Assembly: GCA_051294375.1 (NCBI GenBank)
Contig: CM119268.1
Coordinates: forward strand, 11,257,710-11,321,709
From: Paraspadella gotoi
Lineage: Eukaryota > Animalia > Chaetognatha
DNA length: 64,000 bases
Reading direction: 5' to 3'
Below the pieces are notes generated by a model that worked only from the letters and a program-made list of their open reading frames with translations, was not told where the DNA came from and ran no database searches. Below are positions 8,901-59,953 of this stretch, piece by piece. The number at the start of each line of letters is the position of its first letter. Within the stretch, counting starts at the first letter, position 1. The translations under genes were made by a program, and so were the position numbers.

Positions 8901-11900
8901 GAAATGTTGGGGTCTGATTCGTAGCGGGAAGAGGAGCCGGAGACGGAGAGAATAAACCGATGGGCGATGGCGTGGACGTCGCGCCTACACTCTCAATGCC
9001 GCTGCCGCTGCCCCCGCCGGCACCGTGAAGCATTCCATGATGAACGCGCTGCCCCATTATCCCCTGGTTAAGCCGAAACCCTGCGTTAGTCAAGGAAGCT
9101 TTCGGCGGCGGCGCCACGTTCGGCGGTGGATCGTAGTTCTTGAGAACGACGTCGTCAACGGAGCGAGGAGCGGCGCTAACCGGCGGCGGCGCTGGAGGCT
9201 GCGCCGAATGTTGGGATTGAGAAGGCTGTGGCGGTATGAAATACGAGGGAGCATGAGGAGGAGCGCAAGGAAAAGAACCAGAAGGAACGGCAGGAGCAGC
9301 AGCGGAAGTTGACGAGCTTTGAGCGGTGAGTGAGGTTGAACTAGAGGAATGAGATGCATTGGATGGAAAAGTAGGAACGGCGTCAAAAGAAGGATGAGGA
9401 GGAAACTGAGATTGAGAGGGAGCGGGTGGTCCGACTTTGGGTCCGATGGTGAGCGATGAAGAACTTGCCGCACTGGAAAAGATTACAAATCTATTACGTA
9501 GGGTATAGTGCGGGGTAATTCGGAACACTTTAGTAAGTAATCAATTTTTTCATATAATAAATCAATTTCTGAAAACAATTTTAAGGTGATATACCACTCA
9601 AAGTGTCCCCTCTACAGGTTGATGCAGTCGTTTTTATTTTGCGGCCCTTAGGAGCCGCATTTCTTGAAGAAATGAAAGTGTATTAATAATACTATAATAA
9701 TTTTTTCCGCCTAATTATTTAAAAAATGTAGCTAATAGTAATTATATTTTATAAATTATTACTAACCTGTTATAAAAAGGATATGAGGTAATACAGAACA
9801 CTTTCTTTACAGTTTTTCCGTTTTAATTGTATCTATGTAAAAAATAATTAAATAATTGTGGCGACGACGTTTTCGTCGCCACGGATTTGACCCCAGTTGG
9901 CCACTCTGTTCGGTGGTCGCTCGGGAAGCCGGCTACTGATCTGATCTCTCTCTCTCTCTCTCTTTCTCTCTCTTACTTGATCAGTGCCGCGCTCTCTACC
10001 TTTAGTTCTCTCACGATCTCTCATTGTAACAACATGTCTCTAATATTGTATCATTGCTAATAAATGTACCTCTACATAATCTTTTCGAAATGCTCTCAAC
10101 AATAACTAAAAATAAACGGTCTCGTCTAGAACATAAGGAAGTGGTCTTTTCATAGAATTGAAACATTCTTTGAAATATTATATACCACTTCATTGATAGC
10201 CAGGTACTCCGGTAGTGAATAAACGAGACTGTGAGAGAGTCTTGATTGAAAGCTTGCAGGGACCTGCTATGTCATTATCTTGTAAGAGTGATGGAGGCCT
10301 AAAACCACCAAAGCCTGTCCAAAATCAGGGGCAAGATGGCTTATTTATTAAATATGCGATTTATTTCGAATTCAACATGGTTGATTCAGTACTGAAGAGA
10401 CAGTAATTATTGTTATGAGTTAGTGATAGAACCGTTCAATATAAGCAGTCCCTGAGCTTCGGATCAGGCTGTAACACCATGTTACAGGCGGGTTAAGCGC
10501 CCCGTCCCTCTAAACTGCCAGACGACCACCGGGCTAGAACCCCGGACCTTTGGGTTGGGAGGCGAATGACTTGCCTCCGGCACCAATGGCCGCTGATGAA
10601 CGGTTGGTGGGTTTTAGTCCACCATAGTACAAACAATAAGCTCAAGCAAGACTAGGTATAAACAAAAAACCAAAAAAAACAAAAATTAATTAAATAGTAG
10701 TAAATATTGAGGACAGTGTCTTTCGACAAATAGATTTTTGTAATTAAATTTTTTCTACGTTTGTTAAACATAGTGAAGATGTCCTGGTAACCAAAGAATA
10801 GTTTCCCATCTGTTAAATCCAAAAGATCTTTCGTACGCCATCATTGATAGCTACATTGAGTTTGTTCATGTCTTTAGCTAAAAAAGTCTTTACTTCACAA
10901 CCATAGAGCAAAATAGGAACACCATTAGAGTAAAACAATTTCATGAGTAATTCTTGAGACGGTTTGTATAAGGCATTAATTATGCAATTGCTCGATCGAT
11001 AAAAAGATGCGAGTTCTTTGGTAGGGTCAAATAAAGATCCCTTTTTACTTGATAGGTGAAATCCAAGATAAGTCCATCAGTTTATTAACTCTATTGGATG
11101 GATCATATTGAATGGATAATTTTTATATTGGTTGTACCAATTTCATATATATTAATATTTAACAGTCATATTAGTTATTATTACATTTGAAAACGACTAT
11201 TCAAAGACGAAATTTGACAAGCAACTTTGAAATTGCTGCTGCAGGTACTGAAGCAGCGGCGAAATGCCGTAAATTTATTATGGAAAGTCAAGTTGGTAAA
11301 ATAATTAATGTACCAAAAAAATTATAAAAGATAAGCACACAATTTCTTTATTTAATTTTATATTACGGTGTTCCTAATTACCCCGCACTACCCTTTAATA
11401 ACCACTTAACCGTACTTTCTCACCTATGCGTGCTCGAAGGTCGCGAAGAAGTCTGAAACTCCGGCGTAGCAGAGTCTCTCGTAAACGAAACAGGAGCGGC
11501 GAAGGCTTCGTTTCCGAACGGCGATCCGGCGGGGGCGGCGGAAAAAAAGTTGGCGGGCGAAAACGGTGGGCCACTAGAAGGCGCTTTTAGAGGAGGGAAT
11601 GGAGAAGGTCCCGAGAGAAAACCGCCTAAGAGGAGTGAAATATTGCGTAAAAAAAGGCCATCCAAACAAGAAAAAACTACTTTGAGGCGGTATATTCAAA
11701 CCGCCTCTCATTCATCATCATTCACTGAATGAATCCAAACATTCAGCCAATCCCATTGGCTCAGAGGGGGAACGGCGTTGCGTTCCATCCACAGTCCTAA
11801 CGACTTCCCTCTATGTTGGCAAAGCGAAACCGTCCTATGGTAACCGCGCCAGTAACAGGCGTCACTGAGGGTCGGAAGCCCCCAAAGCCAACAGTGAGAT

Positions 11901-12267
11901 GCCCCATCCCAATGGGCATCACAGGCAACCCGGCTGTTGCCATTTATTGTAAAAGCTTCTCACCCGAAGAGGTGGCCTGTAAGTCCTCCACCTCGAAATT
12001 CTCCAGATCCTCTGCCCCAGGAAGCGGTGAGCCCATCGTCATGACAGGAAAGGGACTCCCCTTTGCAACCGTCATCGAGTCCCCCTGTGCGGCGTCGGCA
12101 GAAGCCGGCACCAACAAGGGGACGTTGTCGTCAAGAGTCGAATCCATCGTCAATCCACGGCCGCCGCTCATCAGCAGCAGCGGTGGCGGAGTTTCGGTTT
12201 TCACGTCGCGGGATGACGGGTGGAGTCGAGGCATGCGGTTTGCGCGGGGCGACGAAGAAGACGACAT
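5913..12267 (-). CDS. SEC23IP: SEC23-interacting protein / DDHD2-type intracellular phospholipase A1 (Pro-rich N-terminus, WWE-like region, lipase, SAM, DDHD)
   Basis: [10 protein letters not shown], lipase GHSLGS, SAM-like ([14 protein letters not shown]) and DDHD motifs [16 protein letters not shown] and [11 protein letters not shown]. Exon 1 is 12267-~11964, exon 2 ~11625-11423, further exons from ~9472; GT-AG boundaries. SEC23IP versus DDHD2 orthology is not resolvable by eye. Confidence 0.9.
10400..10593 (-). mobile_element. tRNA-derived SINE (Gly-like head)
   Basis: The minus strand starts GCGGCCA...TGGTCGT (pairing acceptor stem) with A-box-like TGGTGCCGGAGG and B-box-like GGTTCTAGCCC. 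The body recurs at ~41433-41510 (+), and adjacent sequence 10289-10350 recurs at ~35986-36046. Confidence 0.7.
10797..11076 (-). mobile_element. Degenerate non-LTR retrotransposon (LINE) fragment, region C-terminal to the RT core
   Basis: Manual translation WTYLGFHL...[20 protein letters not shown]...[14 protein letters not shown] / GFNRWETI (one frameshift). YLG and PxLLYGxE are typical of the LINE ORF2 RT thumb region. Confidence 0.75.
11683..11942 (+). mobile_element. ~260-bp structured dispersed element carrying a twister ribozyme fold, copy 1 (SEC23IP intron 1, antisense)
   Basis: Clearly homologous end to end with 38826-39078. TG...CA termini and multiple hairpins. Confidence 0.85.
11814..11893 (+). 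ncRNA. Predicted type-P5 twister ribozyme, copy 1
   Basis: P5 UGUUGGC/GCCAACA; P2 CCGC/GCGA; UAA cleavage motif at 11841-43; T2 GC/GC; P3 CAGUAAC/GUCACUG; P4 GGG/CCC around L4 UCGGAAGC; T1 CCG/CGG. The conserved L1 GA reads AA in this copy. Confidence 0.72.
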
Positions 12268-13902: not shown

Positions 13903-16654
13903 TCATTGGCGTCGCTGGCGTTTGGGCTGTGGAGTAGCCGGCCCAAAGTTGGGCTCGTCGATGAGAGACACGTCCCTGCGTCTTTTATCCTCGGTGAGGC
14001 TGGACTGGCGCTGCTGGAAGCGGATCTGCATGATGTCGAAAATGATGCCGGGCATCTGCGTCGCCAACTGCTGCCAATCCTGTGAGGGACACTTGTTGAG
14101 AAAATCCAGCGCACGTTGCTTAAGATTCGGAGCCTCGTGGAGTTCGGCCAGATTTAACATTTCTTCCACGTTTCCTTTTTTAAGCTGAAAGATGAATAAC
14201 GAAAGCTTATTTTTTTTGTTTTGGGCAACGGCAATTCGAATTTTTATTTATAATTAAAAATTACGGACACGTTTCGGCTAGAGTTCGAGTCTTCATCAGC
14301 GCAAACTAATTTGTAAAATATTTTTGAAATTATTTCTAAAAAATAAAAAGAGAGAGAGAAAAAATAGAAACTCTTTCTCTCTCTCTCTCTTTTTTCTTTT
14401 TTTACTAAAAATACCAAAAATATTTCACAAATAAATTTGCGCTGATAAGAATCAAACTGGATCCAAAAATGTCCGTAATTTTTTTATTGTAAATAAAAAT
14501 TATATTTGTCGTTGCCGAAAACAAAAATTAAACCTTTGTTATTCTAAATTCAAATACAACGAAACTAAGGGATTAACACAAGGTGAGAGATGAAAAATTT
14601 AAAATGAAGGAAATATGACCAAATGAGAAAAAGAGAACTAACCTGTAGGATGAGCTCTTTCTCACAATTGTCTTTGAGCCTTTTAAGTTCGAACTGATTG
14701 GCGGCGGCGAGCAGGCTGGTGATGGACTCGAGCGATTCTTCGACGGTTCCAGTGTAAATGTAACGCATAACTTCCTCGAAAACGGAAGCTTTGATGTTGT
14801 GAACGTTAATGAGGACGCGCCCGTGAACGTCCACGCCAGGCGCCGTCGAATAGTCCAAGCGAGTCTCAGAATGAACGCGGCTGGGTTCCTCTGCTGGATT
14901 TTGTTCGTCGGCTGGTGGGGTAAAATGAATGAATGAATGAATGAATGAATGAATTGTGAAAAGGGGTAATATAATTTTTTTTAAATTAATTTTCAAAAGA
15001 TGGGGAACGGAAAAAATATGCAAAAGATAAAAATGTCGATTAATAGGGGAAGATATAAAAAGACTTACATTGCAAAAACATCTTTCTCATGACAGGCGAT
15101 CCCGCGCTGAGGATAACCTTGTGACCGAAAAATCGTCTCTCTCCGACAGAGAAGACAACATCGCTCAGCATCTCCGTGTCGGCCCAGAGTTTGTCGAGAT
15201 CCTGCTGAAACTTGGTCCAGGGATGGGATAGCCGTTCTTTCTCCATTTGAAGTTGACGACGCTTGTCGACGCTGCCGACGTCGTGAACGATGTTGATCAC
15301 GCAGACGAGCGTGAGAGAGTTGTCCTCGTCGATGTAGTTCTCCGGTTCGCGCTTGAGACGATCGAGCAGTAGAAACTTCTTGAAGCCCCAAGCCGGATGC
15401 TCCTTCTCGTTGAAGCAGCAGACTTTGAGGCTGTTGCGGAGATTCCGCTTTTCACCGTCGAGAAGAATGGCGATCTCGAAGTTGGCCCGTACCTATTAGA
15501 AAGAATATTAAAAGTATAGTGATCTCGCCAGACGTTACTATAAAAAAAATTAATGAAAAAAAAACATAAATGATCGAGGATATAACAAATTATTAATATA
15601 ATAGTAATTGATAAATATAATAGTAATTGATTGATTGATGTAATAATAATTGATTATTGATGCGATGATAACCAAATATTAATACGATAACCAAATATTG
15701 ATTCGATAACCAAATATTGATACGAGGATAACCAAATATTGATATGAGGATAACCAAATATTGATGCGATAATAACCAAATGATGGATGCGATAATAATC
15801 ATTCATTGATGTGATGATAGTCATTCATTTTAAATAAAAACAAACTGGACAGCCACTTGACAGCCACTGCAGAACTGAACTCGTCTATATATATAAAAAG
15901 TTTTGTAAATAAAACAAATAAATGAGTGTAAGAATATAAAACATGTGAATGTAAAAGATCTTGCTGATTAGAAGCTATATCTAAATTTTTAACTTCCTAT
16001 GGTTACAAACTTAAGCTATTTTTAATATTAAAACAGCATAACGACGAAGACATTGACTACGATAAAAAAAAGCAAACAAATTAACATATCTCCCAAGTCG
16101 GGCATTCGCCCGTCTGGCGAGATAAAAAAAAACTTGCTTTTCTGTTACTTATTTAGTAAATTGAAAGTCTCGCCCATTCCGATCTACCTCAGAATCCTTG
16201 CCGCAGTAGACCAAATAAACAGAGAGGAAGGGCCGGTCGTTTTGCTCGTGATCGTGACCGCGGAGATGGATCTTCATCTGAAACTGAATGCGGTCGTCGC
16301 CGGCTTCAGAGGGAAAATTTTTCGAGATGAGGAGGTTTTGTCCATGGTCCACTTCGTCGACGTCATCGTCGGGGTCAGGGTCGCGTTGCCACACGCGAAG
16401 GAATTCCTAAAAGAAGATTAAAGTAACTCATAATCTATGAATGAAATGAATGAAAACGCAAAAAATTCGGTTACCCTTATGGTCCAATTGAACTTAAGCT
16501 TTCCGAAGCAGACGGAGGAGACGCACTCCTCTTCGATGCGGTGGTCTGAATCGGATCCTAGGTCGGCGATGAGCTGTTCCTGCGAAGCCGTCTCTTGGAG
16601 ATGTCCGATGATGACCGAATCGATGGAATCGTCCAAACTGACGTGATCCTCCAT
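13903..16654 (-). CDS. MATH-BTB (SPOP/roadkill-like) Cullin3 adaptor, ~5 exons
   Basis: MATH-like KFNWTI, FLSVYL and WGFKKF; BTB SDVVFSVGERRFFGHKVILSAGSPVM and VMRYIYTG...LLAAANQFELKRLKDNCE; BACK-like AELHEAPNLKQRALDF; C-terminal basic NLS PQPKRQRRQ. Confidence 0.85.
14195..14544. mobile_element. Imperfect ~350-bp inverted repeat of Penelope-like LTR remnants, each with a hammerhead motif, in the last intron of the SPOP-like gene
   Basis: Arm ttgggcaacg...ttacggaca...tcatcagcgcaaa mirrors tttgcgctgataa...tgtccgtaa...cgttgccgaaaac around a GA/CT centre. Confidence 0.7.
14261..14304 (-). ncRNA. Minimal type I hammerhead ribozyme (Penelope-type)
   Basis: Minus strand reads UUGCG CUGAUGA A GACU-cgaacucu-AGCC GAAA CGU GUC^CGUAA. 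Stem I UUGCG/CGUAA pairs, the core is intact, and stem II has one mismatch. Confidence 0.65.
15511..16124 (+). mobile_element. HINE/DINE-like element, family A, copy 2 (intron of the SPOP-like gene)
   Basis: Same 5' and 3' ends as 1091-2688; internal gataaccaaatattgat-type tandem repeats. Confidence 0.8.
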
Positions 16655-32093: not shown

Positions 32094-33090
32094 TCAACCA
32101 TCGCAAGGCTCAGGAAATTCGTAATGCTTGACACCCTTGACAGTAACATCACTCGGATACTGCTTGGGTAGTATTGGATAAACATGTGAGACGTTCCAGG
32201 TGCAAATAGCCACTAGCCAATAGACCAAAACAGTACTTAGAAAGAAAAGAATAAATCTTTCAAGAGTGTAACCCTTGGGAAAAGCTCCTGTGACCCTCTG
32301 CTGTGGCTCTAGTCTGTCCTCCGTATAAAGATCCGCATCAATGTGCATCGGTTCCCCGAAATTACGTCTGAAAATAAAACAAAACTAATTCTTTTCTCGA
32401 TCTACTGAGGAAGTATCAGCATATGTATGAGCAAATTTTATTATAACAAAAAAAATCTTAAAAGTATAGTGATCTCGCCAGACGTTACTATCAAAGAAAA
32501 TAAATGAAAAAAAAAAATAATTGATGAGAACGAATTATTGATATAATAATGATTAATATAATAATAATTGATTAATTGATATAATAATAATTAATAGATT
32601 GATGTAATGATAATTGATTGATTGATGTAATGATAATTGTTTGATTGATGTAATGATAATTGATTGAATAATAATTGATTGATTGATATAATAATAATTG
32701 ATTGATTATTGATATGATGATAACCAAATATTGATGCAATAATAACCAAATATTGATGCAATAATAACCAAAGGATTGATGGAATGATAACCAAATGATG
32801 GACGCAATGATAACCAAATGATGGACGCAATGATAATCATTCATTGATGAAATAATAATCATTCATTGATACGATAATAATCATTCATTGATGCGATGAT
32901 ATTCATTTATTGATGCGATGATATTCATTCATTGATGCGATGATATTCATTCATTGATGCGATGATAGTCATTCATTGATGCGATGATAGTCATTCATTG
33001 CTGCGATGATAGTCATTCATTGCTGCGATGATAATCATTCATTGCTGCGATGAGTCATTCATCGTAAATAAAACAAATGCGAGTATGAGT

Positions 33091-33122
<32 letters not shown>

Positions 33123-34406
33123 AAAAAAAGATAGAGAGAAGCTGGACAGCCGCTGCAGAACTTAATTTGTTTTTAGACAAATCAGAAGAAGCAGCGACGG
33201 AAAAAGAGAGCGACATATATTTTAAAAAGCTGGACAGCTGAACAAATGAATGGAGGAATATGAAACGTGTGAATTTAAAAGATCTTGCTGATTAAAAGCT
33301 ATATCTAAATTTTTAGCTTCCTATGGTTACACACTTGAGCCATTTTCAATGTTAAAACAGTGTGACAACGACAACAACGACGAATACAGTCAAAAGAAGC
33401 AGAAATGAATTAACATCTCGCCCAAGTCGGGAATTCGCCCGTCTGGCGAGATAAAAATGACTGCAAAATCGGCGAATGTAAAAATAAGCCCTACTAAATA
33501 AATGCTAATGTATACACCGTTAAAATAATCTATCATGAGCATAGATTATGGTATTAAAATATTTTTTATCAAAAATGCTTTTTTCTGAGGGTACTAGCCT
33601 AGTTAAAAATATTATATTATTATATGAAACAAAAATTTTTTTTAATTTAAAAATTTTTTGATGGATTCTGATAGAGCATAAAAAGTTGATCAAGAAATAT
33701 AATTAGAGCTTTTAAAAATTCTTATGTTTTCTAAGTGAAAATATAAATAAAAATTGATAAAATCATCGGAAGATGATGATGAATTTTTACGTTTTTTCTT
33801 ATTTATGACACTTATTATAAAAATATTTAAAAAAGAATTATACTTTGTGTAGATAACTTTTTATGAGCTATCTGAATCTGGTTTTAAAATAAAAAAATTC
33901 CAAAATAAATTTTGGCCTTTCCTATCTATAAATAAATATTAAAAAATTAATTACTAGGTTATAGAACCATATTAGAAATTTTTTGTCCATTGAAAGTATT
34001 CTTAGAAATGTATAAATATTCGTTTGAGCATGTACTCACACTAAATTTTTGACTCACCCCATTGAGTTGGGCTACCCCTACTACTAACAGACCCTTCAAC
34101 CTTTACGCTTCATGGATACCTGTCATATTGATAGTCCCAGTTGTAGTACGGATCTCGTGCGTAACCGCCAGATTTCGGCAAATCCGGATAGTCGCCAAAC
34201 TCCCCTGTTGGTATGGGTTTGTAGTCCTCAACGATGAGACCGTACTTTTTAGCGGCGGCGGCGTACATCTCGGGCGTGGTGGGAAAAGGTCCGGCCTTCC
34301 AATCCTGATTCCAGGTCGTTATAGAGCCGTGGCGGACAGAACCCAACAGGCGGAAGGAGGCGGCTGGGACGCGCCCGACCGAGCGAAGAATCGGAAGGAG
34401 GACCAT
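32094..34406 (-). CDS. NDUFB8: NADH:ubiquinone oxidoreductase subunit B8 (ASHI), 2 exons
   Basis: WKAGPFPTTPE...AAAAKKYGLIVEDYKP...GDYPDLP...RDPYYNWD joined to RNFGEPMHID...PILPKQYP...HYEF. Confidence 0.93.
32461..33453 (+). mobile_element. HINE/DINE-like element, family A, copy 3 (NDUFB8 intron), with an expanded ~22-bp minisatellite
   Basis: Same termini as the other copies; tandem gatgcgatgatagtcattcatt units at ~32830-33060. Confidence 0.8.
33560..34000. repeat. Old, degenerate palindromic MITE-like remnant (approximate limits)
   Basis: gattctgatagagcataaaaagttgatc (~33664) is mirrored by gataactttttatgagctatctgaatc (~33852); related motifs near 41264 and 51198. Confidence 0.4.
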
Positions 34407-35535: not shown

Positions 35536-38500
35536 TCAGCCGATCTTGGCCCATCTGACGAAGTCAGGCACATCCTTTACGGGCACGTTACGGGCGATTG
35601 CTTTTACGCGAAGATTTCGGTCGTCGGTGAGCAGAACCGCCTCTCGGAGGAGACGCAAGGGCGCGCCAGGATCGTCCGGCATTTTCGCGGTAGCAGAGGC
35701 ATCGACCGGCGAGTCCTTCGTCAAATGCAGGCACGAATTGAGAATCAGGTCGTCGTTGTTTCCGCGAGAGCCGACTTGCGACGTGTCGACCTCCTCGCTG
35801 CGAAATGCGATCGTGTCTAAGATCGAACCCTTCGAAGTGATCGCACGGATACCGCTTTTGTACTTGAACTGATCCCGTACCCAAGATAGAGCCATTTTTG
35901 CACCCTCAAAAACCTGAACAATAAATAGTAGGCTCCTTTGTTTGAAAGTTGTTGATAGTTATATATTATCAACTAATAATATTATGGATGGAGGCCATAA
36001 ACCACCAAAGCCTATCCAAGGGGGCAAGATAGATTATTTATTAAATGAATAGATAATTTTTATATTGGTTGTACCAATTCATTAGTATATTTTTTCATGA
36101 TAAAATTTTGAGAAAATTTTTGAATTTAATAAAATATTTTATAACTGATAGTCTTCTGTTTTTAATAAAAAAATGAGAAGTTTAGGTTAAACGTGTCTAT
36201 CTGCTCTACAATTTATAACTGGAGAACACCAAATTGCATACCTTTTGCGCTTGTTCGTGCGTCTCGTAAGCGTCTGGACGGCACCCTTTGGCGAGACCTT
36301 CTAATTCCGTCAAAACGATTAACGGGATGACCAACGTTGTTGACAGCTGACTGTTTTTACAACCGATTAACTGAATCGCTGTCGGGAGAAATACGAAGTA
36401 TTATGCAAATTACGCACAGCGAATGTATATTGTATAAGGTTTGTAAGTACCATGGAGATGATCAATGTAGCAGTTAGTGTCGGGAAGCAGGTAACGAGGA
36501 CGAATCTCCAATTGAGTTGATCGCTTCTGAAGGTGACTATCGACCACCGCGCGTGCCGTCTCCTTTGCACGTTGCCTCTCCTCTATTTCCTGAAAAGATC
36601 CGTTTGGTAAGATCTGGTCGAAGCCCGAATTTAAAAAGGGACATACCTTTTGAGTTTTTCTTACCTGTCTCAAAACCTCTCGCTTCTCTCTCAATTCCTT
36701 GACGTGATCGTCCTCTTCCTTGTCATCTCTCTCGCCTGTTGACCGTTCTTCTTTCTCTTCCTCCACTTCGGGTTCACTCGTCCCACCGTCGACCGCGGTT
36801 TGGACTTTCGGTAAGTCTTCCGACGCCAGGTTTTCGCAGCCTGAGAGCGAAAGAGAAGCATAGGCTCTGTAATAACGACATGGTTTGATGATATACTATC
36901 TGTGTACCAAAACTTTAAAAAAATGGATTGCTTTTAGGTAAAAAATTAAAAAAATTATAAAATACAACAATATGCAAATGAGTTTTCGCGGATCAATTAA
37001 TTTTTTTCAAAATAAGTATCTTACTGTATTTCGGCTCGACAAGTGACTCGTAGGTGTGCGAATCGAGGTTGTAAGCTAGAAGGGGAGGATCGATGCCGCA
37101 GAGGTAGTCCGAGAACATCCGAAGTTGGGAGATGCGCAGGCATTCCTCGGCACGGTTCTGCTCCACGCTAGAATCCACGTAGGAATAATTGTGGGGCCTG
37201 AAAAATGTAAATGCGGGTGAGGGGAAAATAGTAACAAACTGAAGGAAGACGTCAACTCCATACACAATTCCCTTACTTGGACAGCAAAGGCACGAAACCG
37301 GCAAGAGAGACATCTTCGTCGAGGATGACAGGGCTTTTCCCTTCCTCCAAATGCGGACTCAGTTCGACGTCGTCGATGTCAACTCGCTTGAGAGCGTTGA
37401 AGAACGCCGCCAACGAACCGAAAACGTCCGTGCTGCGAGGGAAAAGAAAAATAAAATAAAATATTTTTCATTAATGGAAAAAAATATTTACAAATATCTT
37501 CAGCATATTTTATTTAAAGATAAAGATTAGTTTAAGGTGACGAGATGAAAAAAAAAAACTAATTTTAAATTTAAAACTAAATTACTAGCACCATTCCCAC
37601 CTAAAAGGCGGCGCGCTCCCCTCTTCCTCGTCCTCCACTGACTCAGCCACACTTCGACGCAGCGCCGTCGGAGGATTCCACAGGTCTACATGACAGGCGC
37701 ACCAGTCGCACCAGACTTTTACGACTGGGAGCAGCTGGGAGAGGGCTTCTCTCGTTGCCGTCGGTTTCGAGGAAGTCGATGGACCGGCGCTGCCCGACTC
37801 GATAAAGGGAGAAGGCGGCGCTTCAGCGTCCGTCGAGGCGTCGGCGATGATATCGGGAGAAGGGGGGCAACTCGCGGGCTTGTCGGACGAAGGCGGTTGG
37901 GCGGAGACGGAAGTATCGTCGGCCGGTGAATTCTCCGATGATTCCGTCTCGAGTAGCTGCGTTATTCGCTGGCAGCAGAGGCAAAAATTTTACTAATAAG
38001 ATTTCGGTTTAAAAATCAAATCATTCCAGCCGACTAGCTTTTAAAAAGTGTCCCTCACCTGCACAAGCAGAGCGAACATGTTAAATCCAAGCGAGAGTGC
38101 GAACTCTTGTAGAGGATTAGAAGGGGTGGAAGGACGAGAGTCGCTGTCCGCGGGAGAGAGCGCCGATGTCGCCGCTTGTTGCTCCACTTGAAACATGTTG
38201 ATTGCCATTAATTGCAACAGTCGCTGCTGCCCGACGGGACATGGCCGATGCGACAGCAGGCACTTGAACTCCCAAAGCAGCAGCGAACTAAGATGGGGAA
38301 ACGTTTCCATCCCGATCTTGGTGAACAGTCTGGAGAAAATTAAAAGTTGCAAATATTTTTGAAAAGTCATTGAAACTATGGCACCGATTTTTGACTGCGT
38401 CCAAACGTTAACCTGCCGTGGACGTTGAGGAATGACATGACGAATCGACGGTTCAGTTCCACCGGCGTCATCGTCTTCAACTCATCCTCGATCGTCGTTC

Positions 38501-39779
38501 TCGAGGTCGTCGATGAAGACTCCGAAGCTGTAGGTTCTTCCGCATCAGCATCGACCGACTAAAAAGATATTTTAAATTATTTTTGACATTAAATTAAGCT
38601 ATTAGTATTTCGTTGCTAAGTCGTACCTGCGACGAAACTACCCCGTCGGGCCCGATCCAAATCTCGACCCTCGGTGGAACGAAGGGCTTCTTCGACTTGC
38701 GCCTCTTCTTCGTCTCCTTAGCTTTTTTAGTCGGACGAAGCTTTTCCTTACGGCGCCGTTCCTCGTCCGCTTCATGCTTTTTACGAACCTAGCGGTGAAA
38801 AAAACTCATTTGATTATTACGATAATGTGGCGGTATATTCACACCGCCTCACGTCCACCATCGTTCAGCCAATATCATTGGCTCAGAGGGGGAACGCACC
38901 ATCCCAGGCGTTGCGTTCTATCCACAGTCCTAACACGACTTCCCTGTGTTGGCAAAGCGAGACCGTCCTAGGGTAACCGCGCCAGTGACTGGAGGCGTCA
39001 CTAAGAGTCGGAATCCCCCAAAGCCAACAGTGAGATGCCCCATCTCAATGGGCATCACAGGCAACCCGGCTGTTGCCATATTAAAATATTTTCAAATAAA
39101 ATAGAAGATCTCACGTCGTCAAATATAGAGTTGAGGGATTCTCTCGCGGTGATGAAGGGGTTGCTGGCCGCTAAGCTGCGCATATAGTAGTAGACGGCGT
39201 CTAATTTTCGCTTCGTGTAGACCGCAAGGATAGCCAATTGATTGTAGGGTCTCCCATTCTTTGGCGCGAGCTGCTGTGCCTTTAAGTAGTAGCTACGGGC
39301 CTTACCGTAGTTGGGATTAGGGTAAGTTTGTTCGCGATACCTACGAATGCATAGACGTTATAGTGACTAAAGAAATTAAAAGCAAGTAATTTGGGCAATA
39401 TTGTAAATTACGTAAATTAAGTAACTATAGAGCGTGATCGGTGAGTCTAACCTTGCGATATCTCCCAGGGCGATGAGGCACTTTTGGGCGGAGACGAGCG
39501 CCATCCTGACGGCGCGGCAGAGGCCCTCATTGCGGAAAGGCGTTGGTCTCTCGACAAAGTCGGCCACAGAAATTTGAAAAGTCGTCTCGAGACGCTGGAG
39601 GAGGGAGTCGTAGAAGAGGACGGCGTCGTCGAGGACCTGGTAAATCTCGGCGCGAGCCTGAGAGAAAAAATTGAAAATAAGAAATTTTTTTCTTAAAACA
39701 GACAGGTTTCTACTATGATTATAGCTTTTATCAGCGCAAATTGACAAATTAGACAAATTTTCACAAAACGTGTGTGTGT

Positions 39780-39811
<32 letters not shown>

Positions 39812-42800
39812 AAAAGAAAGAATGAGAGAGAGATGAGGTTAAAGTTTCCAACAAAAAATTGAGAGATAAAATAGTGGTGAGAAGTTGAGGACAGCTAAAG
39901 AGTGAGGAAAGTGGGAAAGAAGTGAAAGGTCAGAGATTTAAATGCATACATTAAGCAATGTACATTTGTACAACACGGTGAATTTTTTTTTTAAACTGAA
40001 ATTAACAATTAAATAAAATAAGTTGATTGAACTACAACTAAAGAAAAATTAAAAGTTAATTAAAGTTAAAAATATACAATCGAAAGAAAAACAATACTAT
40101 AAGAATTGTTAAAGAATTATGTAATTTAAAAACTCACTTTTTCCTCAGCCACTTTATCGCCCTCCTCTTGCGCCTTAAGGAGGCCCTTGCGTGAGAGTTC
40201 GATGATTTGGTAAAAGCAAGACTTCCACAGGAGTTGCTCGAGGTTGTTCTTGTTTGAAAGTTCAAGGTCGAGAAAGAGCAGATCCACCAGGAGGGAGCAG
40301 AGCCTCTCGCGCCTTTCTATCACCTTGGGGACGTTTTCATCGTTGAGGGGCCAGCGCGACAGAAGATTGCTTAGTTGATTGTCGACGGCCGTCACTTCTT
40401 GAAGGAGAGCGTCGAACTGTTGCAGCTTAGAGGGCTCTCGGTAAGGAGCGCCGCCCGTTGGGTCAGAATGCGCGAAACCGCCTCGCGCCATAGGAGCGCC
40501 TGGATGCGGCATACCGGCGGGACCTCTGGCCCTAAGATACTGCGCATGAGCCATAGAGGAAGCCTCGCCACTCGGGTGAAAAGCTTCACCCGAGCCATAT
40601 TCTGGCCCATAATAACCGGGATTGGCGTACGCCGAGGGATGACCGTACGGCGGTGGTCGGTAAAAGTTTTGCGCTTGTTGCGGTTGACCGTGCGGTTGTT
40701 GCATGTTTGGAGGCAAAAATCCTGGATGAGGCGGCGGCACCCTTCCACCTCCGTAATAGCCAGAGTAATGCTCCGGAGTCGGATAAAGAGAGTGAGGGGG
40801 TGTATCGGGCGAGTCGACGGAGGGCGCCCTCTGGGCCTGCGATGCCATTAGCGGCTTCGTCGGATTGCGAGGATCGTAGAGGCGATCTTCGTTGTATACC
40901 GACACTTGATGTCGATCATGGCGCCTTTCCTTTTGTTGTTGCTGTTGTTGCTGCTGCTGCTGTTGTAGGTATTGCTGACGAAATCTAGGCGGGGCATTTT
41001 TCGGAGGAACGAAGTGCTTTGGAGGTGGGGGATCTGCAACTGTAAAGAAAATGTATAAATAATTTTTATTGCCTCTACATTAAAGCGTATATAGTAAAAA
41101 TTCTATATTTAAGTTTATTTAAAATTCTAAAAGTGAGGAGCGAACAACATTAAACTAATGAACATTTATGTATAAAAAAAAGTAGGCCATATTTATACAT
41201 AGTACTAATCCATTAAATGTTAACATTTTAAAATAGTTTTCTGTAGGATTTTTTTGCAGATTTGGATTCGTCATGAAAAGTTGATATAAAGAAATATAAC
41301 TCTTTTTTAATAACTATTTCATTAAGTTGGTCAAATATAAGAAAAAACCTATATTTTAAGCTAAAAATTAAAATTTTATATATTAAATATAGTTTTTTTA
41401 AATTTTTAACCCACTTAATGAAAGAATTTTTAAGCCTGATCCGAAGCTCAGAGACTGCTTATATTGAACGGTTCGGTCACTAACTCATAACAATAATTAC
41501 CGTCTCTTCACAATCAAAATTAAGAAAATTTTGAAATTTTACGATTTTATGAGGATAGTACTATAAATATAGCCTACTGCGAAAATTAACAAGTTTGAGC
41601 AAACAATGTCGGATCTGCCTACGATAATTAAGCGGTAATGAGCTAATCCGATGATAAATCATGGTAATATTTTCTAACTTTCTATTTGTTATCTTAACAG
41701 ATCATAACAAATTGTAACATAACAAATCTTAACAGACTTCTTAATAAATCTTTGAAAAAATCTATAAATCAATTGATCTATCAATCATTACCAGTAGCTG
41801 CTAATACCAACTTGCATAATTTAGTCAACTTGCAAAATTTGCTCAACTGACATAATTTGATCAACTGACATAATTTGCTCAACTGGCATAATTTGGTCAA
41901 CCGGCTTTATTTGCTCAACTGGCATAATTTGGTCAATAGGCATAATTTGTCAAGCAATCAATCAATCAGAGAGAGATAGAGAGGGAAACTTTAAATCCAT
42001 CCAATCACGAGTAATTGGAGTATTATGCTAAGGGGGGACGGAGAGACGGACGGACGGACGAACACCATTTTTTTTTGGCATAATTTATCATAATTTGATG
42101 TTCTGACATGTTCTAAGTTAATGACCGACAAGATTTGGGGGGTGGACAGACGGACCGACAAAGTAAATATTTACGATAAGCAGATCTGACTAAAAATATA
42201 ATTTTTTTTTTGGATAAATTAATGTTTACTGATGTTATGTTGTTCATATTTGAATTTTAGAATTTTTGTATGCAACTTTCTACGCTCTGCTCTACATGGT
42301 AACAATTCTAAAACAGCCGTTAAAAACGCTCCCATTTGCAAACCATTATTTCATTGATTTTAAAAGTTGAGTAAAAAATACCAAAATCATTTGTTTTCAA
42401 ATTTTATATTCATCAGTTAAGATATGCCTTGACAATGAGTGGAAAAAGTTGACTTTTAAAATGGGGTTTCAATTTCTAACTCAGTTTTTAAATTCAATTT
42501 TTTAAAACTTTTAATACTTTTTAGATAAAGTATTTATTATTAATATGAAAAATTTAAAAGAATGATACTTACGAAAGCTCTTATATAAAAATTAAGCTGC
42601 CCAACCCCGGTTCAGGATACCCTATCACATTTTAATAAAAATTTTAAATTTGCCCTACAGCTATTGATTTTTTGAAAGATATCTCGTTTTTGACTATCCT
42701 AATTAAATTAAAGCTGGGCCAGTTAAATTTTATACTACAGTATTCGTAAGTACATCATTCTCTGATTTGCAAGGGCTTTCAGAAGATAATAATATTAATA

Positions 42801-45800
42801 TCATTTTATTTTAAATTTCTTCACTGGAAGTAAGAGAAAAAAATTGAATTTAAAACACAGCGAGTTTAAAAATCAGAGACGATTTTCAAATCTATCTTCC
42901 TGCTATCATTGCTTCAAGGCATATCAAAGTCGATTCTGATAAAATTTGCATATATAAATAGTTAGGGTATTTACTTTTAAATTCATATTTAACATTTAAC
43001 AAGTTTGAGCAAACAATGTCGGATCTGCCAATGATCATTATCGGTAATTAATTAATTAATAATTAAATAATTCAAGTTAATTAACTAGGCATTTAATTAA
43101 TTAATTTGATCCCAAATGTTTGTTTTTAGGTCTTTTCGCCACTAACCACGACAATATCAATGACGATAAGAATAATGCCGATAACGATTGACTTGATTGA
43201 TTGACTGATTAATTAATTATTGATTAATTAATTGACTAATTGATTAATTAACTGATTATTTTATTAATTAATACATCTTGTATTTACATTTAATATAAAA
43301 AAAAAAGAAGCATAATCAATTAGTGAAACAGATTTTTTTTGTTTTTCTCATTTAAACTCAATTCCACTCAAACAATTCCATCAAAACTTGATTTCCAGTT
43401 TAATCATACTTTTCTACCCACATACAAAATATCAGGTCAATCGCCGCATCCACTCATGAGCAATTGGTTTTCAAATAGTGAAATATATTTGTTTGTTTTT
43501 TCCACTCATTTCCATTCGGATGATTCAAAAACTTTGATTTTCTCATAATTTATCATAATTCGATGTTCTGACATGATATAAGTGCCCGACAAGATTGAGG
43601 GGGCGAACCGACGGACCGACAAAGTGAATTATAGAGTCGGGATCTGCTGATAAGCAGATCCGACTAAAAAAACTTTATGGGTTTGCAAATGGCAGCTTTT
43701 TTTAGCGGCGGTTTTAGAATTGTCATCAAGTAGATGTATGTTGATAACATCTTTTTGAATAAAGCGATACCGGGCGGAGATGGAGTCTTTCTCGCGGCTT
43801 CCATAATTCCTTCGGGTATCCTGATGATTCCGCCACCCTTGCCCGAGCGCGATGGGTCATTACTCTCCTGCTCTTTAACCTTTCCAGCAGCTCCAGTGTT
43901 AGCGTTAGGAACTGTTGATGAAGCGATTTTTGCTTCTTTGCCGTCTTTCTCTTTTCCCTCGGAAGAAAAGCGAGACTTTTTATCCGACTGAGACCGATTG
44001 CTGTCGTACGAACTGGCCGAGTCCTGGCGACATCGTTGTCGATTTCTATCGCCTGAGAAATAAGCATTTTTCGGTTTAAAATATTTATAAATCAAGAATT
44101 TGGTCCCCCCTTTGGGAACTCAAATGATTCGAACAAAGACGACGACGAATATAATAACGAAGACGACGACGAAGTCTTTGTACTTTGTGACCCGTAGTGG
44201 TCAGTAAGAATAACCTTTCCTAACCAAACAGAATGACCTTGTTATGGCTGACCTTTTCCAGCCAATGTAAATACGTATTTGTTGTTGTTATTTTTACCTT
44301 TTTGATTTTTACTTACTTATTTTCGTTAATATATGTTTTCTCTTCTCACAAAAAACACGTCTCGAATTTTTCTCTAAATTCTTATTTTTGAGTCACCTCA
44401 CCCCCAAAATATCTGAAAACAGAAAACGTCGAACCTTTCCCTTTGTCTTCCCTACGATCTTCCTTGCTTCTCCGAGGTGATTTGGATTTAGCATCATCTT
44501 TGGGTTTGACGGGCTCCTGTTTGTCCCGAGGGTTGTTCTCTTGTCTGTCCTTCTGTTTGTTTTCATTTTTGTCGCGAAGTTTTTCTTCGTGTGACGGCGT
44601 TTCGTTTTGAGGAGAATTAATATCACCAGTATTGGAATCCTCCATTTTAATTTCAAGCTTGCCTTCTTTTTCGAGCTTCAGTTCTTCCTCGTACATTTTA
44701 TCCTAAATAAATTTTTAAATGTTAAATTTTGAATGTAAGAATTTTGTTCGGTCATCCTCATTGACTCACCCTTTCAAAATCTTCTATCTCGGCGCTCCAC
44801 GATTCCACAAATTCACGGTCACGCGTGAGAACCTCGAAAGAGCATTCGGACTGACCGGAAGCTTCCTCGCTTACGTCTTCCATGTCGCGGGACCGTGGTC
44901 GACTTGACGACCCGCCACTGTCCGCGTGAGCTTCCTCTTTCAGTCTCGACGCCTCCTCGTCTAACTTTCGCTTCACGTCCCTGACATTAATGGCTCCGCC
45001 GCCTCCTCGGCCTCCGCGTCGGTTCAACGCCGGATTTCGCCCCTGAGGGGCAGGAGGTCCTCTTCGTTCGTCCCTCCGAGGAGCCTCCTTATCTCGTCTC
45101 CGATCCACGTCTCTCTTCTCAAAATCTCTGCCTTCGTCTCGACGTCCGTCGCGCCTTTCCTCCTTTTTCGCTTCTCTCTCCACAGACGGTCGACCGCGCC
45201 TCTCGTCGGTGTATCTCTTTCCGCCAGCCACGCCGCCTCCCGGACCGCAACCGCCGACGCCACTTCCGCCCCAATCCTCCCATCCTTTATCGCTCCCAGT
45301 GCTCGTTGTCCGGTTGCGATGATTATAGCCGAGCCGCCCCTGATCCAAGGAATCTTTCGACGAAGATCCTTTAACCCTGTCCCCTTGCTTAAGCTTGTCG
45401 TGCTGGCTGAAGGTTCTTGTGAGGCTGTTGCTGCCCGACAGCTGGTTTGTTACTTCCATTTTCTCTCTCATACTTTCGCTTCTGTTAATTCCTCCGTGTG
45501 GCGGGCCCTTGTCCCAACTCTCCCCGCGCCCATCTCTTCCATTATGCCTGCCCTTACCACGGCCACTACTGCTTCCGGTGGAATCTTTGTGAAACCTTCC
45601 CCCCTTCGTCTCCTCTGGGTTTCTTCTTTCTTTTCCCGCATCCACCTCAAAATTTTCCTTGTGTGGTCTCCCGAACTTTTGGGAGTAACCGCCGACGCCA
45701 GCGTCATCCCGAAGTCCGCGCTGATCGAAGCGATTTCCGGCGGCGGCCGCTCCCGGGTCCCTTGGGTGTGGCCGCTGATGATAATCGTCTCTCTTACTTT

Positions 45801-47103
45801 GATCGTGCGGGGTTTGATGATCATAGTCTTCGTAGTGCTGTTGCCTCCGATCTATTCTGTAAGCATCGTCTCTTCTCTCTCCACCCTCGTTCCGAATCTG
45901 CCTTGCGCCGCGGAAATGTCGCTCATCTTCCACCGGTGGCGCGTAGAAGTCCCCTCGGTCAGGGCGCGCCTCCTTCTGTCGACCATCTTTAGATGGATTG
46001 TTCCTACGTCCAGAATCTTTCCAAACTTCGCGTTGGTTTTCCTGGGATTGTTGCGACTGATGCGTTTGCGGTTGAAGCGGTTGCGATTGTTGTTGCTGAT
46101 GATGATTATTCGCTCGGCCATGATTAAACTTAGGACTTTCCTCTCTGAACTCTGTGTTTCTTCCAACGTTCTTGTTCTGTGAAGGGGGATGCTGCCTGGA
46201 TTCACGCTTTCCGCTCCGATGTTCAGCGACGTGGTGTCCTCCCCGATGATCGGCAGGGTGCTGTTGTCCGCTTCTGTGATCCGAGGCGTGATGCGGTGCA
46301 CCCCGGTGATTAGTCAGCGGACTTTCGCTTCGATGTCGATCTTCGGCTTTTACTGAATGTGCCTGAAAGGGTGAGATGATGGCAGGCGAATGTTATATCC
46401 TTATCTACGCTTCACTGATGAGAACAGACGTTAAATCTTTTCGTTCTCGTCTCGATTACTTACCTGCGACGATTTTCCTTTTCCAAATTCGGTTTCTTCG
46501 TGACTGGATCCTGTGTCGCCGGTATCCCCACGAGCTTTTGGAACGTAACGCGGGATATCCGGTCGCTGAGAATTAACATTTTAACCCACTACAATGAATA
46601 ATTTACGAGATAAGTACATATAAGGTAGTAATTACGAAAATAAGAACCTTTGGCTTTGACCCAAAACTGCTAGCATCTGTCAATGAAAGTTCTGTGAGTC
46701 GCTGTTGTAACGAAGAAACCTCGGACGAATGTTTGGAAGATTTTTGTTCCGCCGGGGCGTGACCAGATCCGCGATCGCCGCTTCCACTCGGAGAACCGTC
46801 GCCGCGCTTCGACAACTTTGAAACGCCCGCCTGATAAACCTTATTTCAAAAACCATAGTTTTTACCGAATTATCAAATTCGGTAGTATCGAAAAATTCCG
46901 ATACAATACATACCTGCATAACGGGTCTCTGCTTTTTGTTTCCATGATAATATTCATCGCCGTAATCTACATTTCTACCCCTCTGACCTCGATGTTGGGA
47001 AGGAATTTCTCTCCCATGCATCTGAAATTAGTTGGAGTACGGTATCATAATTATGTCATGACGTGACAAATATTGGTATCCTCACCCCTGATGCAGACGC
47101 CAT
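35536..47103 (-). CDS. SMG6: SMG6/EST1A nonsense-mediated decay endonuclease, many exons
   Basis: N-terminal EJC-binding-like motifs (RPVMQ|IYQAG, RPDIPRYVPK); Est1/TPR region (LEQLLWK, ALGDIARY, PKNGRPYNQLAILAVYTKRKLDAVYYYMRSLAASNPF); PIN domain (LLPDTNCYIDHL, NNDDLIL, LLTDDRNLRVKA). The ATG at 47103 is inferred. Confidence 0.93.
38826..39078 (+). mobile_element. ~255-bp structured dispersed element carrying a twister ribozyme fold, copy 2 (SMG6 intron, antisense)
   Basis: Homologous end to end with 11683-11942. Confidence 0.85.
38947..39029 (+). ncRNA. Predicted type-P5 twister ribozyme, copy 2
   Basis: UGUUGGC AAA GCGA GA CCGU CC-UAG-GG UAA CCGC GC CAGUGAC-loop-GUCACUA AGAG UCGGAAUC CCCC AAA GCCAACA. 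The conserved L1 GA is intact; T2 and P4 carry substitutions. Confidence 0.68.
41588..42192 (+). mobile_element. HINE/DINE-1-like element, family B, copy (SMG6 intron)
   Basis: Starts aacaagtttgagcaaacaatgtcggatctgc and ends gcagatctgactaaaa (subterminal IR); GGAC microsatellite; internal ~21-bp tandem repeats. Confidence 0.78.
42370..42980. repeat. Degenerate AT-rich palindromic MITE-like remnant (approximate limits)
   Basis: gatatgccttga...aaattcaatttt is mirrored by aaaattgaattt...tcaaggcatatc. Confidence 0.4.
42998..43666 (+). mobile_element. HINE/DINE-1-like element, family B, copy (SMG6 intron)
   Basis: Same 5' end; 3' hairpin ggatctgctgataagcagatcc followed by gactaaaa. Confidence 0.8.
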
Positions 47104-54238: not shown

Positions 54239-54963
54239 AACAAGTTTGAGCAAACAATGTCGGATCTACTCACGATCATTATCGGTAATTAATTAATAAT
54301 TATTTAATTAATTTAATTAATTTGATCCGAAATGTTTGTTTTGATTGATTAATTGACTGATTAATTAATTATTGATTAATTAATTGACTAATTGATTAAT
54401 TAACTGATTAATTATTTGATTAATTAATACATCTTGCATTTACATTTAAAATAAAATGAAAAAGAAGAATATTCAATTAGTGAAACAGGTTCTTTGAATT
54501 TTCCATTTAAACTCATTTCCACTCAAACGATTCTATCAAAACTTGATTTCCAGTTTAATCACACACTTACCCAAATACAAATTTCAAGTCAATCGCCCCA
54601 TCCACTCATGAGTAATTGATGTTCAAATAATGAAATATACTTTTTGGTTTTTTTCCATTTAAACTTGGACGATTTCCATCATATCCAGCTCAATAACACA
54701 CTTCCCTACCCACACACAAAATTTCATTCCAATCCATCCATCCAATCACGAGTAATTGGTGTTTTTTGCTAAGGTCGGTCGGACGGATGGAAGGACGGAC
54801 GGACAGACATACAGACGGACGGACATCGTTTTTTTTGGCATAATTTATCATAATTCGATGTTTTACATGATATAAGTGAATGCCCGACAAGATTGAGGGG
54901 GCGGACCGACGGACTGACAAATTGAATTATAGAGTCGGGATCTGCTGACAGCAGATCCGACTA
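54239..54963 (+). mobile_element. HINE/DINE-1-like element, family B, copy
   Basis: Same termini as 42998-43666; ggacggacagac microsatellite at ~54780-54824. A 5'-end fragment of this family also lies at ~859-910. Confidence 0.8.
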
Positions 54964-59163: not shown

Positions 59164-59165
<2 letters not shown>

Positions 59166-59225
<60 letters not shown>

Positions 59226-59694
59226 AGTTCCTGTCATCAATTCCGTTTAAGCCCGGTTTTATCTCTTGACTATCCCTTGAAATTTTATTATTTCAGGTTA
59301 ATATTCGCTATAAAAGTTTTCCATTTGGTTTTATTCGTATTTTATGTTTTTTTACTTCTTTGCATTTTAATTGATTTGGCTCCACTTGTGAATATTTAAG
59401 ATATCAAATTTAAGGGACTGCAAGCGCCGCCTTCAGGAAATCCTTAAACTATAAAGAACAAGAGGCCTAATTCCTATGCAGTGTGTCTTATAAATACATG
59501 TAGTCAATGACTACTAGTCATGTCATGGCACGTCATGTTATGTTATGTCACATCATGTCATGGGACGAGAAATACACGTGATAAGGCAGTCACTGCGGCG
59601 CAACACATTTGAATTACCGTTCTTGTTTTCGTAATTTCTCTCTTTCCTTAAATCCTTTTTTTCTTTCTTTCTTTCTTTCCTTAAATCCTTTTTT

Positions 59695-59770
<76 letters not shown>

Positions 59771-59891
59771 TTTCATTGCTTCTAATAGAAAAAAAATTTT
59801 CTAGTTTAACGAGTTTTTTTGTATTTTGAAGTCAGTTTTAAGTTGAAACGAAACCGAAAATCTCTCTCTCTCTTTTCTTTCTCTCCTCTCT

Positions 59892-59953
<62 letters not shown>

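Follow-up and report, generated by a model that had tools for sequence, protein, structure and literature searches.

To our knowledge, twister ribozymes are common in animal genomes and have a known role in one setting only, the 5'-end processing of RTE-type retrotransposons. Their near-invariant letters are AA after the scissile bond, GC after helix P2, GA in loop L1 and AAGC in loop L4, and the permuted type-P5 form probably stands in Rfam under accession RF02684, in the twister clan CL00120. Published work counts "at least ten" near-invariant letters in L1 and L4 (PMC5408937). In Schistosoma mansoni, T-variant twisters lie at the 5' end of Perere-3, an element of the RTE clade (Liu et al. 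2021, PMC8501958), and truncated twisters are reported in RTE elements (PMC7761336). Animal retrozymes, in turn, are proposed in a preprint to be non-autonomous derivatives of Penelope-like elements (Li et al. 2026, preprint 10.64898/2026.07.22.740005). Here we describe a dispersed repeat of ~255 bp in a 64-kb stretch of Paraspadella gotoi DNA (64,000 nucleotides of contig CM119268.1, called the window throughout), which the original prediction had read as the carrier of a type-P5 twister. The reading that we favour, with a little more than even confidence, is that of a non-coding repeat, likely a non-autonomous retroelement, whose 3' half matches a type-P5 twister in all core features save a normal P1 and whose predicted cut at U11841^A11842 would likely take place only when two copies are paired.

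The twister-like domain and its family

The repeat was located in the window by alignment and blastn, and a domain with the pairings of a twister was found in both of its copies:

11683-11943, + strand, copy A of the ~255-bp element (alignment, blastn), with a private 21-nt insertion near the 5' end
38826-39080 (end at 39079/80), + strand, copy B of the ~255-bp element (alignment, blastn)
11814-11893, + strand, twister-like domain of copy A, closed by P5 (match to the pattern descriptor given in the next section, and pair check; P5 is kept in the minimum free energy (MFE) and centroid folds)
38947-39029, + strand, twister-like domain of copy B (pair check; not matched by the descriptor)

Copies A and B agree at 86.7% over 218 columns and at 83.8% over the first 37. 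They have a common start (TGAGGCGG in copy A, TGTGGCGG in copy B) and a common end (GTTGCCAT), and the sequences that flank them are mutually unrelated. The original prediction had given a unit of ~260 bp that returns at 38826-39078; the repetition stands, and the ends had to be moved, from 11942 to 11943 in copy A and to 39079/80 in copy B. A blastn search with a word size of 7 found no third copy in the window.

In copy A the domain occupies positions 132-211 of the 261-bp unit, and the predicted cut falls inside the unit. The parts follow one another as P5, P2', L1, P1, UAA, P2, GC, P3, P4/L4 and P5', which is the order of a type-P5 permuted twister. They are:

11814-20 with 11887-93, + strand, P5, 7/7 Watson-Crick pairs
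11821-23, + strand, J, AAA (read from the sequence)
11824-27 with 11844-47, + strand, P2, GCGA (3' strand) with CCGC (5' strand), 3 Watson-Crick pairs and one C.A
11828-29, + strand, 3' side of L1, AA, with GA in the family majority (sequence, contigs)
11830-32 with 11873-75, + strand, pseudoknot T1, CCG with CGG, 3/3, and 3/3 in copy B too
11833-40, + strand, P1 segment UCCUAUGG, with UCCUAGGG in the family majority (sequence, contigs)
11841-43, + strand, predicted cleavage site U11841^A11842, followed by A11843 (alignment to the Rfam twister consensus UAA; descriptor)
U38974^A38975, + strand, equivalent predicted site of copy B (alignment)
11848-49 with 11878-79, + strand, pseudoknot T2, GC with GC, 2/2, and 1/2 in copy B
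11850-67, + strand, P3 hairpin, a C-G closing pair plus AGUAAC/GUCACU with one A.C mismatch, 6/7
11869-71 with 11880-82, + strand, P4, GGG/CCC, 3/3
11872-79, + strand, L4 UCGGAAGC, whose CGG pairs in T1 and whose GC pairs in T2 (pair check)

Every pairing that had been named in the original parse of 11814-11893 was thus found letter by letter, T1 and T2 of copy A included, and both the alignment to the Rfam consensus UAA and the descriptor agree with the cut predicted there.

Each window copy has defects. Copy A has no guanine in L1 and carries the A.C mismatch in P3. In copy B the L1 GA and the six inner P3 pairs are intact (P3 6/7), and private changes damage the P3 closing pair at 39003, P4 at 39006 (GAG), and both the L4 AAGC and T2 at 39014 (AAUC). 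The state of these positions in the wider family was read from contigs of public runs that fitted the copy A and copy B stretches at 80% identity or more. These runs were X1 and X3, which are DNA, and X9, which is probably RNA because a spliced contig is present in it; the best-fitting DNA runs may be the window's own sample, so that they are not independent of the window.

The AA that had been noted in place of the L1 GA proved to belong to copy A, since the family majority has G at 11828 (136173.7 of 138024.3 depth in X1, 51929.8 of 52400.7 in X3 and 11554.4 of 11639.8 in X9). The majority letter at 11854 is likewise G in place of A (15361.9 of 16934.9 in X1), which mends the P3 mismatch. 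At the three damaged positions of copy B, the X1 majority is G in place of A at 39003 (377735.2 of 379820.6), G in place of A at 39006 (378211.9 of 379541) and G in place of T at 39014 (400391.9 of 402027.1). At all five positions the majority letter holds >90% of the depth in each of X1, X3 and X9. Three further majority letters differ from copy A: G for T at 11838 (131771.2 of 132991.8 in X1), by which the P1 segment becomes UCCUAGGG; G for A at 11813, just outside P5; and C for T at 11814, which costs the outermost P5 pair. X3 and X9 agree with the X1 majority. The family majority shows all of the near-invariant UAA, GC, GA and AAGC and pairs in both pseudoknots. The majority form thus combines all core features, and both window copies are derivatives of it with slight damage. 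This repair by the majority adds little beyond independence from one copy, since any consensus matching by chance would repair its copies in the same way.

The placement of variation in the family says more, and it differs between the two halves of the unit. The 5' half has a hypervariable patch (38934-46) and at least seven polymorphic sites, two examples being 38863 (46%) and 38873/4 (~70%). Within the 84-nt domain, the variants of at least 2% among those listed fall only in the P3 loop: 38994 G>T, which reaches 14% in X1, and an indel of TGG/AGG, part of the family having TGG or AGG inserted behind 11856. When copy A is the reference and the level is 5%, the P3 stem also has listed variants of low frequency, at 11852 and 11855. 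From 39031 to 39080, copy B's private 39045 excepted, no variant of at least 2% is among those listed. The freely varying place in the 3' half is the P3 stem-loop, which is variable among known twisters too. Among the copies that spread, constraint is tighter across the entire 3' half. A deletion derivative in X1, a single contig with a depth of 32.4, has CAGTGGC...GCCACTG for the family's CAGTGAC...GTCACTG, with both sides of one P3 pair altered; this double change is a single locus and was not counted as covariation.

On these observations we regard 11814-11893 as probably a real twister-class fold, in which we include the case of an inactive relic. That the fold is catalytically active seems to us about as likely as not.

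Chance expectation and covariance models

The descriptor of a type-P5 twister was built from the canonical order and the Rfam consensus line. Its first part called for U-NNN-AAGC with a 3-bp P4, and for NAA, four letters and GC within 49 nt upstream. In its second part, the P2 partner (at least 3/4) had to be followed by GA or AA and then by letters exactly complementary to NNN, 5-40 nt ahead of the site, and a P5 stem was required. Applied to both strands of the window, the descriptor matched once, at copy A. In 20 Mb of order-1 random sequence drawn from a window model there were 1500 loop anchors, of which 356 had the middle part and 7 were core matches; the same amount drawn from an element model gave 727 anchors, 182 with the middle part and 1 core match. 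A P5 of at least six Watson-Crick pairs arose by chance in 1.4% (window model) and 1.0% (element model) of 40,000 trials, and a P3 hairpin of at least five pairs spanning the gap in 0.7% and 0.6%, respectively. The chance expectation per window is thereby estimated at 0.045 x 0.014 x 0.007, or ~4e-6.

The original prediction had been staked beforehand on a covariance-model check, and the outcome of that check was weak. On the 95 nt from 11806 to 11900, the sole Rfam match at E<=10 among 4227 families was twister-P1 (RF03160), with 11.4 bits and an E value of 6.7 at a cut-off of 67.2. This partial alignment covers UAA, P2, GC, P3, P4, GUCGGAAGCC, P4' and AAAG. Because the Rfam models are without pseudoknots, and because a P1-type model is blind to the permuted half, the covariance models are not decisive either way.

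A number of points weigh against the reading that we favour. No Rfam match reached the gathering score in the whole window; the 401-nt stretches around each copy gave no twister at E<=10, only chance matches to small nucleolar RNA and microRNA; no type-P5 match was listed by Rfam; and the 97 nt of copy B had no Rfam match at E<=10. At window scale a twister-P1 match of 11.4 bits would have an E value of ~1 for that family alone. The descriptor was built after the candidate had been seen, and over ~250,000 windows 0.1 to 1 chance match of such quality is possible. The nested twister structure of copy A has -18.1 kcal/mol vs -25.5 kcal/mol for the MFE structure, which is another fold. None of the folding z-scores is significant (+ strand, -1.88 and -0.55; - strand, -1.52 and -2.05), and they show no strand preference. 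The P1 segment forms no stable hairpin alone (0.0 kcal/mol, ViennaRNA). The pairings are those of two full sequences in a very homogeneous family. It is not obvious what a dispersed single unit would gain from a cut in its middle, recognition by a reverse transcriptase could by itself account for the uniform 3' half, and an open reading frame (ORF) for a reverse transcriptase (RT) or GIY-YIG protein is absent from the window (94 ORFs, Pfam).

From several of these points a different account can be assembled, in which the P5-closed domain is a structured 3' region of a mobile element, for example a recognition structure for the copying enzyme, whose likeness to a twister is chance and which never cuts. 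The lack of a significant Rfam match, the post hoc descriptor, the thermodynamic preference for another nested structure and the absence of P1 as a stable helix all fit this account, as does the equal invariance of the whole 3' 134 nt, two terminal hairpins foreign to twister included. It nevertheless leaves a chance expectation of ~4e-6 per window to be explained, and the fact that the only sub-threshold Rfam family is twister itself. Also against it, the family majority has all ten near-invariant letters (AA, GC, GA and AAGC) along with both pseudoknots. We consider this account unlikely.

P1, the ends of the unit and the mode of spread

P1 of the domain is a 2-bp stem (U.G and C-G) capped by the palindromic tetraloop CUAG, and the majority P1 segment is self-complementary along its whole length. 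As a self-duplex, the segment has -8.2 kcal/mol for the copy B 8-mer, offset by one base and holding a 6-bp CCUAGG duplex, and -3.8 kcal/mol for copy A. The MFE structure of the dimer was a trivial full-length duplex and is uninformative. For ~2600 natural type-P1 twisters assayed in one study, P1 is reported as dispensable, imperfections in P1 and P2 and insertions in L1 as tolerated, and the G-to-A change of the general base as lowering the cleaved fraction merely from 0.76 to 0.54 (PMC11662667). Axolotl and newt hammerheads are described in another report as having a one-pair helix III with a palindromic tetraloop and as cutting poorly as monomers and well as dimers (PMC7229834).

By analogy, a 2-bp P1 with a CUAG tetraloop might leave a lone copy weak. 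Two copies, either in trans or within one tandem transcript, could then join by their palindromic P1 segments into an extended P1, and the paired copies would cut at U11841^A11842 as a double twister, as amphibian hammerheads do with a weak helix III. Cutting by such a dimer of copies is a tentative proposal, to which we give somewhat less than even confidence.

The same small P1 enters into a further account, in which the domain descends from a true twister and has lost its activity, so that the fold survives only as a structural relic and the spread of the family had other causes. In this account the minimal 2-bp P1 would be a sign of decay, as would the C.A at the L1-proximal P2 pair, which is present in both copies at a position with no variant listed; Naiad-type elements, moreover, are reported to thrive without canonical ribozymes (PMC8557442). 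Against a relic, the study cited above reports P1 as dispensable and P2 imperfections as tolerated (PMC11662667), and the majority has kept its catalytic letters and the two pseudoknots intact, which would be needless without constraint, though this last point is a weak one since the family is young. On balance we think a relic quite unlikely.

The abundance and the ends of the repeat were read from the same contigs. In X1, 3546 contigs fitted the copy A stretch and 6636 the copy B stretch. Word depth summed on the unit is ~9e5 to 1e6 vs 26-37 on unique flanks, a ~10^4-fold ratio that does not equal a copy number. Contigs break off exactly before 38826 (147 in X1, 94 in X3 and 33 in X9) and behind 39080 (160, 104 and 38), and the right end of copy A is sharp at 11943, from which 173, 106 and 35 contigs of these runs continue into unlike A/T-rich DNA. 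The flanks of the junction contigs are unlike one another and A/T-rich (agreement 0.40-0.44), the left ones tending to end in ...ATAT and the right ones to start with ATAT. Sharp junctions in so many contigs indicate a discrete ~255-bp element. It is present at no fewer than hundreds of insertion sites in A/T-rich DNA, and its sites probably number in the thousands.

In two other runs, X10 (organism B, only guessed to be RNA) and X11 (a biofilm metagenome), one contig each was fitted to 11775-11943 and 38826-39080, with family-majority letters throughout the twister domain. Their right flank is identical and not A/T-rich, and the two contigs would represent either the element inside another high-copy sequence or, at low depth, one particular locus in this animal or a relative. 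A scan of metagenome contigs for the 3'-hairpin pattern gave one locus (L001), a G+C-rich unrelated chance match, and pattern scans of genome contigs and viral contigs gave 0 further copies.

Depth along the unit shows no 5'-truncation gradient. Along the unit the X9/X1 depth ratio climbs gradually, being ~3- to 4-fold higher near the 3' end, and nothing was drawn from it, contig depths being unfit for such a reading. The unit has no ORF and no terminal inverted repeats, and no clean target-site duplication (TSD) is visible at copy A or copy B, which repeats what had been reported at first. The hairpins that had been described as flanking the domain are present near both ends of the unit:

11686-11705, + strand, 5' terminal hairpin GGCGG...CCGCC (read from the sequence; equivalent in the fold of copy B)
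11898-11920, + strand, 3' terminal hairpin GAUGCCC/GGGCAUC (read from the sequence; fold of copy B)
11924-11941, + strand, 3' terminal hairpin GGCAAC/GUUGCC (read from the sequence; fold of copy B)

The element is thus characterized by the lack of an ORF, sharp ends, subterminal hairpins at both ends, A/T-rich targets and very high homogeneity. Its designation as a non-autonomous dispersed element is upheld by ends that are sharp on both sides, by junction contigs numbering hundreds or more, and by the missing ORF.

The narrower proposal of a solo long terminal repeat (LTR) or retrozyme fared worse. The unit does literally have TG...CA ends, and these do not hold up as evidence for an LTR. A solo LTR of an LTR retrozyme, or a tandem non-LTR retrozyme unit that spreads through circular RNA, could appeal to those ends, to the ribozyme-bearing non-coding retroelements of such size that are described in animals (PMC7229834), and to a head-to-tail joint of 11939 to 11744. 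This joint comprises a 196-nt part of the unit and is found in one contig per DNA run, near single-copy depth (35 in X1 and 26 in X3). However, both copies are single units that lie 27 kb apart with SPOP-like, alpha-SNAP, FKBP, class I tRNA synthetase and other host genes between them. No paired copies flanking an internal region were found, and no search was made for a primer-binding site or polypurine tract. The ends are fixed, not permuted, and abut unrelated A/T-rich DNA in hundreds of contigs, the 4-bp TSD is not visible, and known retrozymes bear hammerheads, not twisters. We rejected the plant-type LTR retrozyme or solo LTR on the distance between the copies, the host genes, the lack of a TSD and the unrelated A/T-rich surroundings, and the tandem animal non-LTR retrozyme on the single units, the one joint contig per DNA run and the lack of any hammerhead in the Rfam search; such an origin strikes us as extremely improbable.

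Sharp ends, subterminal hairpins at both of them, A/T-rich targets, the lack of a TSD and the lack of a 5'-truncation gradient in depth would also suit a non-autonomous DNA transposon, Helitron-like or of another class, in which the twister-like fold is a passenger. Yet the termini are unlike the TC...CTRR ends of Helitrons, terminal inverted repeats are missing, and DNA transposition is not known to involve self-cleaving RNA, so that we hold a DNA transposon to be very unlikely. Two other candidates were set aside. One was a short interspersed element (SINE) derived from tRNA, 7SL or 5S RNA, as ARAGORN found 0 genes in the window and neither copy had a tRNA, 7SL or 5S match at E<=10. The other was a promoter duplicated along with genes, as the flanks of the two copies are unrelated.

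According to the favoured reading of a non-autonomous retroelement, the repeat would move through RNA, with a reverse transcriptase supplied in trans, and a Penelope-like element of the Naiad type would be the leading candidate for the donor. This Penelope-like link is drawn by analogy, and we advance it tentatively, as something possible on which we would not rely. In the Naiad consensus file of Craig et al. 2021 (PMC8557442), 11 window-derived words gave no match to the element within its first passages, matches across line breaks being missed. Five L4-type loop variants together with the window's loop word TCGGAAGC gave no obvious P5-type twister in this file, again with matches across line breaks missed. 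Joining the two ideas, one may picture a double-twister lineage: a type-P5 twister, its P1 shrunk to a palindromic tetraloop, that cuts only as pairs and serves short non-autonomous Penelope-like elements as hammerheads serve retrozymes, the family being young, possibly active and unseen by covariance models. As a whole this picture is speculative, and we think it doubtful.

Genomic setting and comparison with described elements

The window is gene-dense animal DNA. A Pfam scan of 94 open frames found exons for a DHHC palmitoyltransferase, a DDHD2-like phospholipase (WWE, SAM and DDHD), a rhodanese, a SPOP-like MATH-BTB protein, alpha-SNAP, nucleoplasmin-FKBP, VPS9, a class I tRNA synthetase, an S49 peptidase, a short-chain dehydrogenase, NDUFB8, an SMG6-like protein (EST1 and PIN) and DUF92. 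Animal protein clusters are nearest to the DDHD2-like frame. The same scan revealed neither a reverse transcriptase nor an endonuclease or transposase in these 94 ORFs. One X9 contig splices 11624 to 11963, which defines an intron of 338 nt (11625-11962) in a minus-strand gene; its CT..AC ends read as GT..AG on that strand. Copy A thus takes up nearly all of this intron, antisense to the gene. Copy B is non-exonic and lies within or next to the minus-strand SMG6-like gene, between the exons for its two domains:

39379-39894, - strand, EST1 domain of the SMG6-like protein (Pfam)
35539-35958, - strand, PIN domain of the SMG6-like protein (Pfam)

The sequence directly beside copy B has little X9 depth or none. 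The orientation is antisense in 2/2 copies, a number too small to carry meaning.

Microsatellites and several further repeat families are present in the window. A composite dispersed repeat (families D10, D15 and D16) occurs in three copies, at 1079-1352, 15499-16128 and 32449-33457, each of which adjoins an A/T-rich minisatellite with a 22-23-bp period (15573-15830, 32514-33084). A near-perfect large inverted repeat of the foldback type, ~1.3 kb long, spans 1317-2618, with 370-nt arms that are 96% complementary and additional arms of 104 and 105 nt. Collinear direct-repeat blocks (D11, D13, D14, D17, D19 and D20) at 41588-43650 and 54239-54948, ~11.2 kb apart and 81-96% alike, with a third partial set at 41588-42189, represent a local duplication or another repeat family. 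A 78-nt inverted pair (10393-10470 and 41433-41510), 95% complementary and 31 kb apart, is probably another short dispersed repeat. The open frame at 44758-46392 on the - strand (544 aa) has no Pfam match, and the 2-kb bins in which it lies are more strongly strand-skewed than any others in the window (GC -0.20, AT -0.29). Long (CT)n and (TTTC)n microsatellite arrays stand at 59161-59970, and (GA)n tracts at 33087-33141 and 39771-39837.

A literature search found no report that joins twister to Penelope-like, Naiad or short dispersed non-autonomous elements, and the sequence described here may itself stand in published lists of predicted twisters. Compared with a type-P5 twister, the domain is alike in its permuted order, in both pseudoknots, in the UAA, GC, GA and AAGC of the family majority and in having P3 as the sole variable part. 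It is unlike in its P1, which has 2 bp with the palindromic CUAG in place of a normal hairpin, in the C.A of the L1-proximal P2 pair, and in a score far below the Rfam cut-off. T1 is CCG:CGG here vs CCC on the Rfam twister consensus line.

The T-variants of Perere-3 (PMC8501958) resemble this case in a twister-class fold, a reduced P1 and a high-copy mobile element. There, however, the element begins with the ribozyme and is cut at its 5' end, and the TSD supplies P1, whereas here the fold is of type P5, the predicted cut is internal and no link to RTE elements was seen. Schistosome SINEs of the Sm-alpha type (PMC6765202) are likewise short non-autonomous repeats with an internal self-cleaving ribozyme (predicted in our case); in contrast, theirs is of the hammerhead class, and no tRNA-like or other RNA polymerase III head was detected here. 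Naiads, a clade of Penelope-like elements (Craig et al. 2021, PMC8557442), share with the repeat its A/T-rich, (TA)n-like sites, TSDs that are hard to see, very high copy numbers in invertebrates and the lack of a canonical hammerhead. The difference is that Naiads have an RT/GIY-YIG ORF and the repeat has none, and the likeness is one of analogy, the 11 window-derived words having given no match.

The hammerhead non-LTR retrozymes and Penelope-like pseudo-LTRs described by Cervera and de la Pena 2020 (PMC7229834) are also short (170-400 nt) and non-coding and contain a self-cleaving motif, which is a predicted one here. Amphibian hammerheads are also alike in having a closing helix of 1-2 bp and a palindromic tetraloop, with cutting that is dimer-dependent there. 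The animal retrozymes form tandem arrays of units, each with a type I hammerhead, that are expressed as circular RNA; the present repeat has a twister-like fold and occurs as dispersed single units.

Should the favoured reading be true, the library models would miss a whole architectural variant, and for this reason the counts of twisters in animal genomes, and in retroelements held to be 'ribozyme-free' such as Naiads, may be too low. The family is both abundant and homogeneous, and intact copies from nature should lend themselves readily to cloning and testing. A short dispersed element that carries a permuted twister with a dimer-prone P1 would then constitute a second setting for this ribozyme, parallel to that of the hammerhead in retrozymes and Penelope-like elements.

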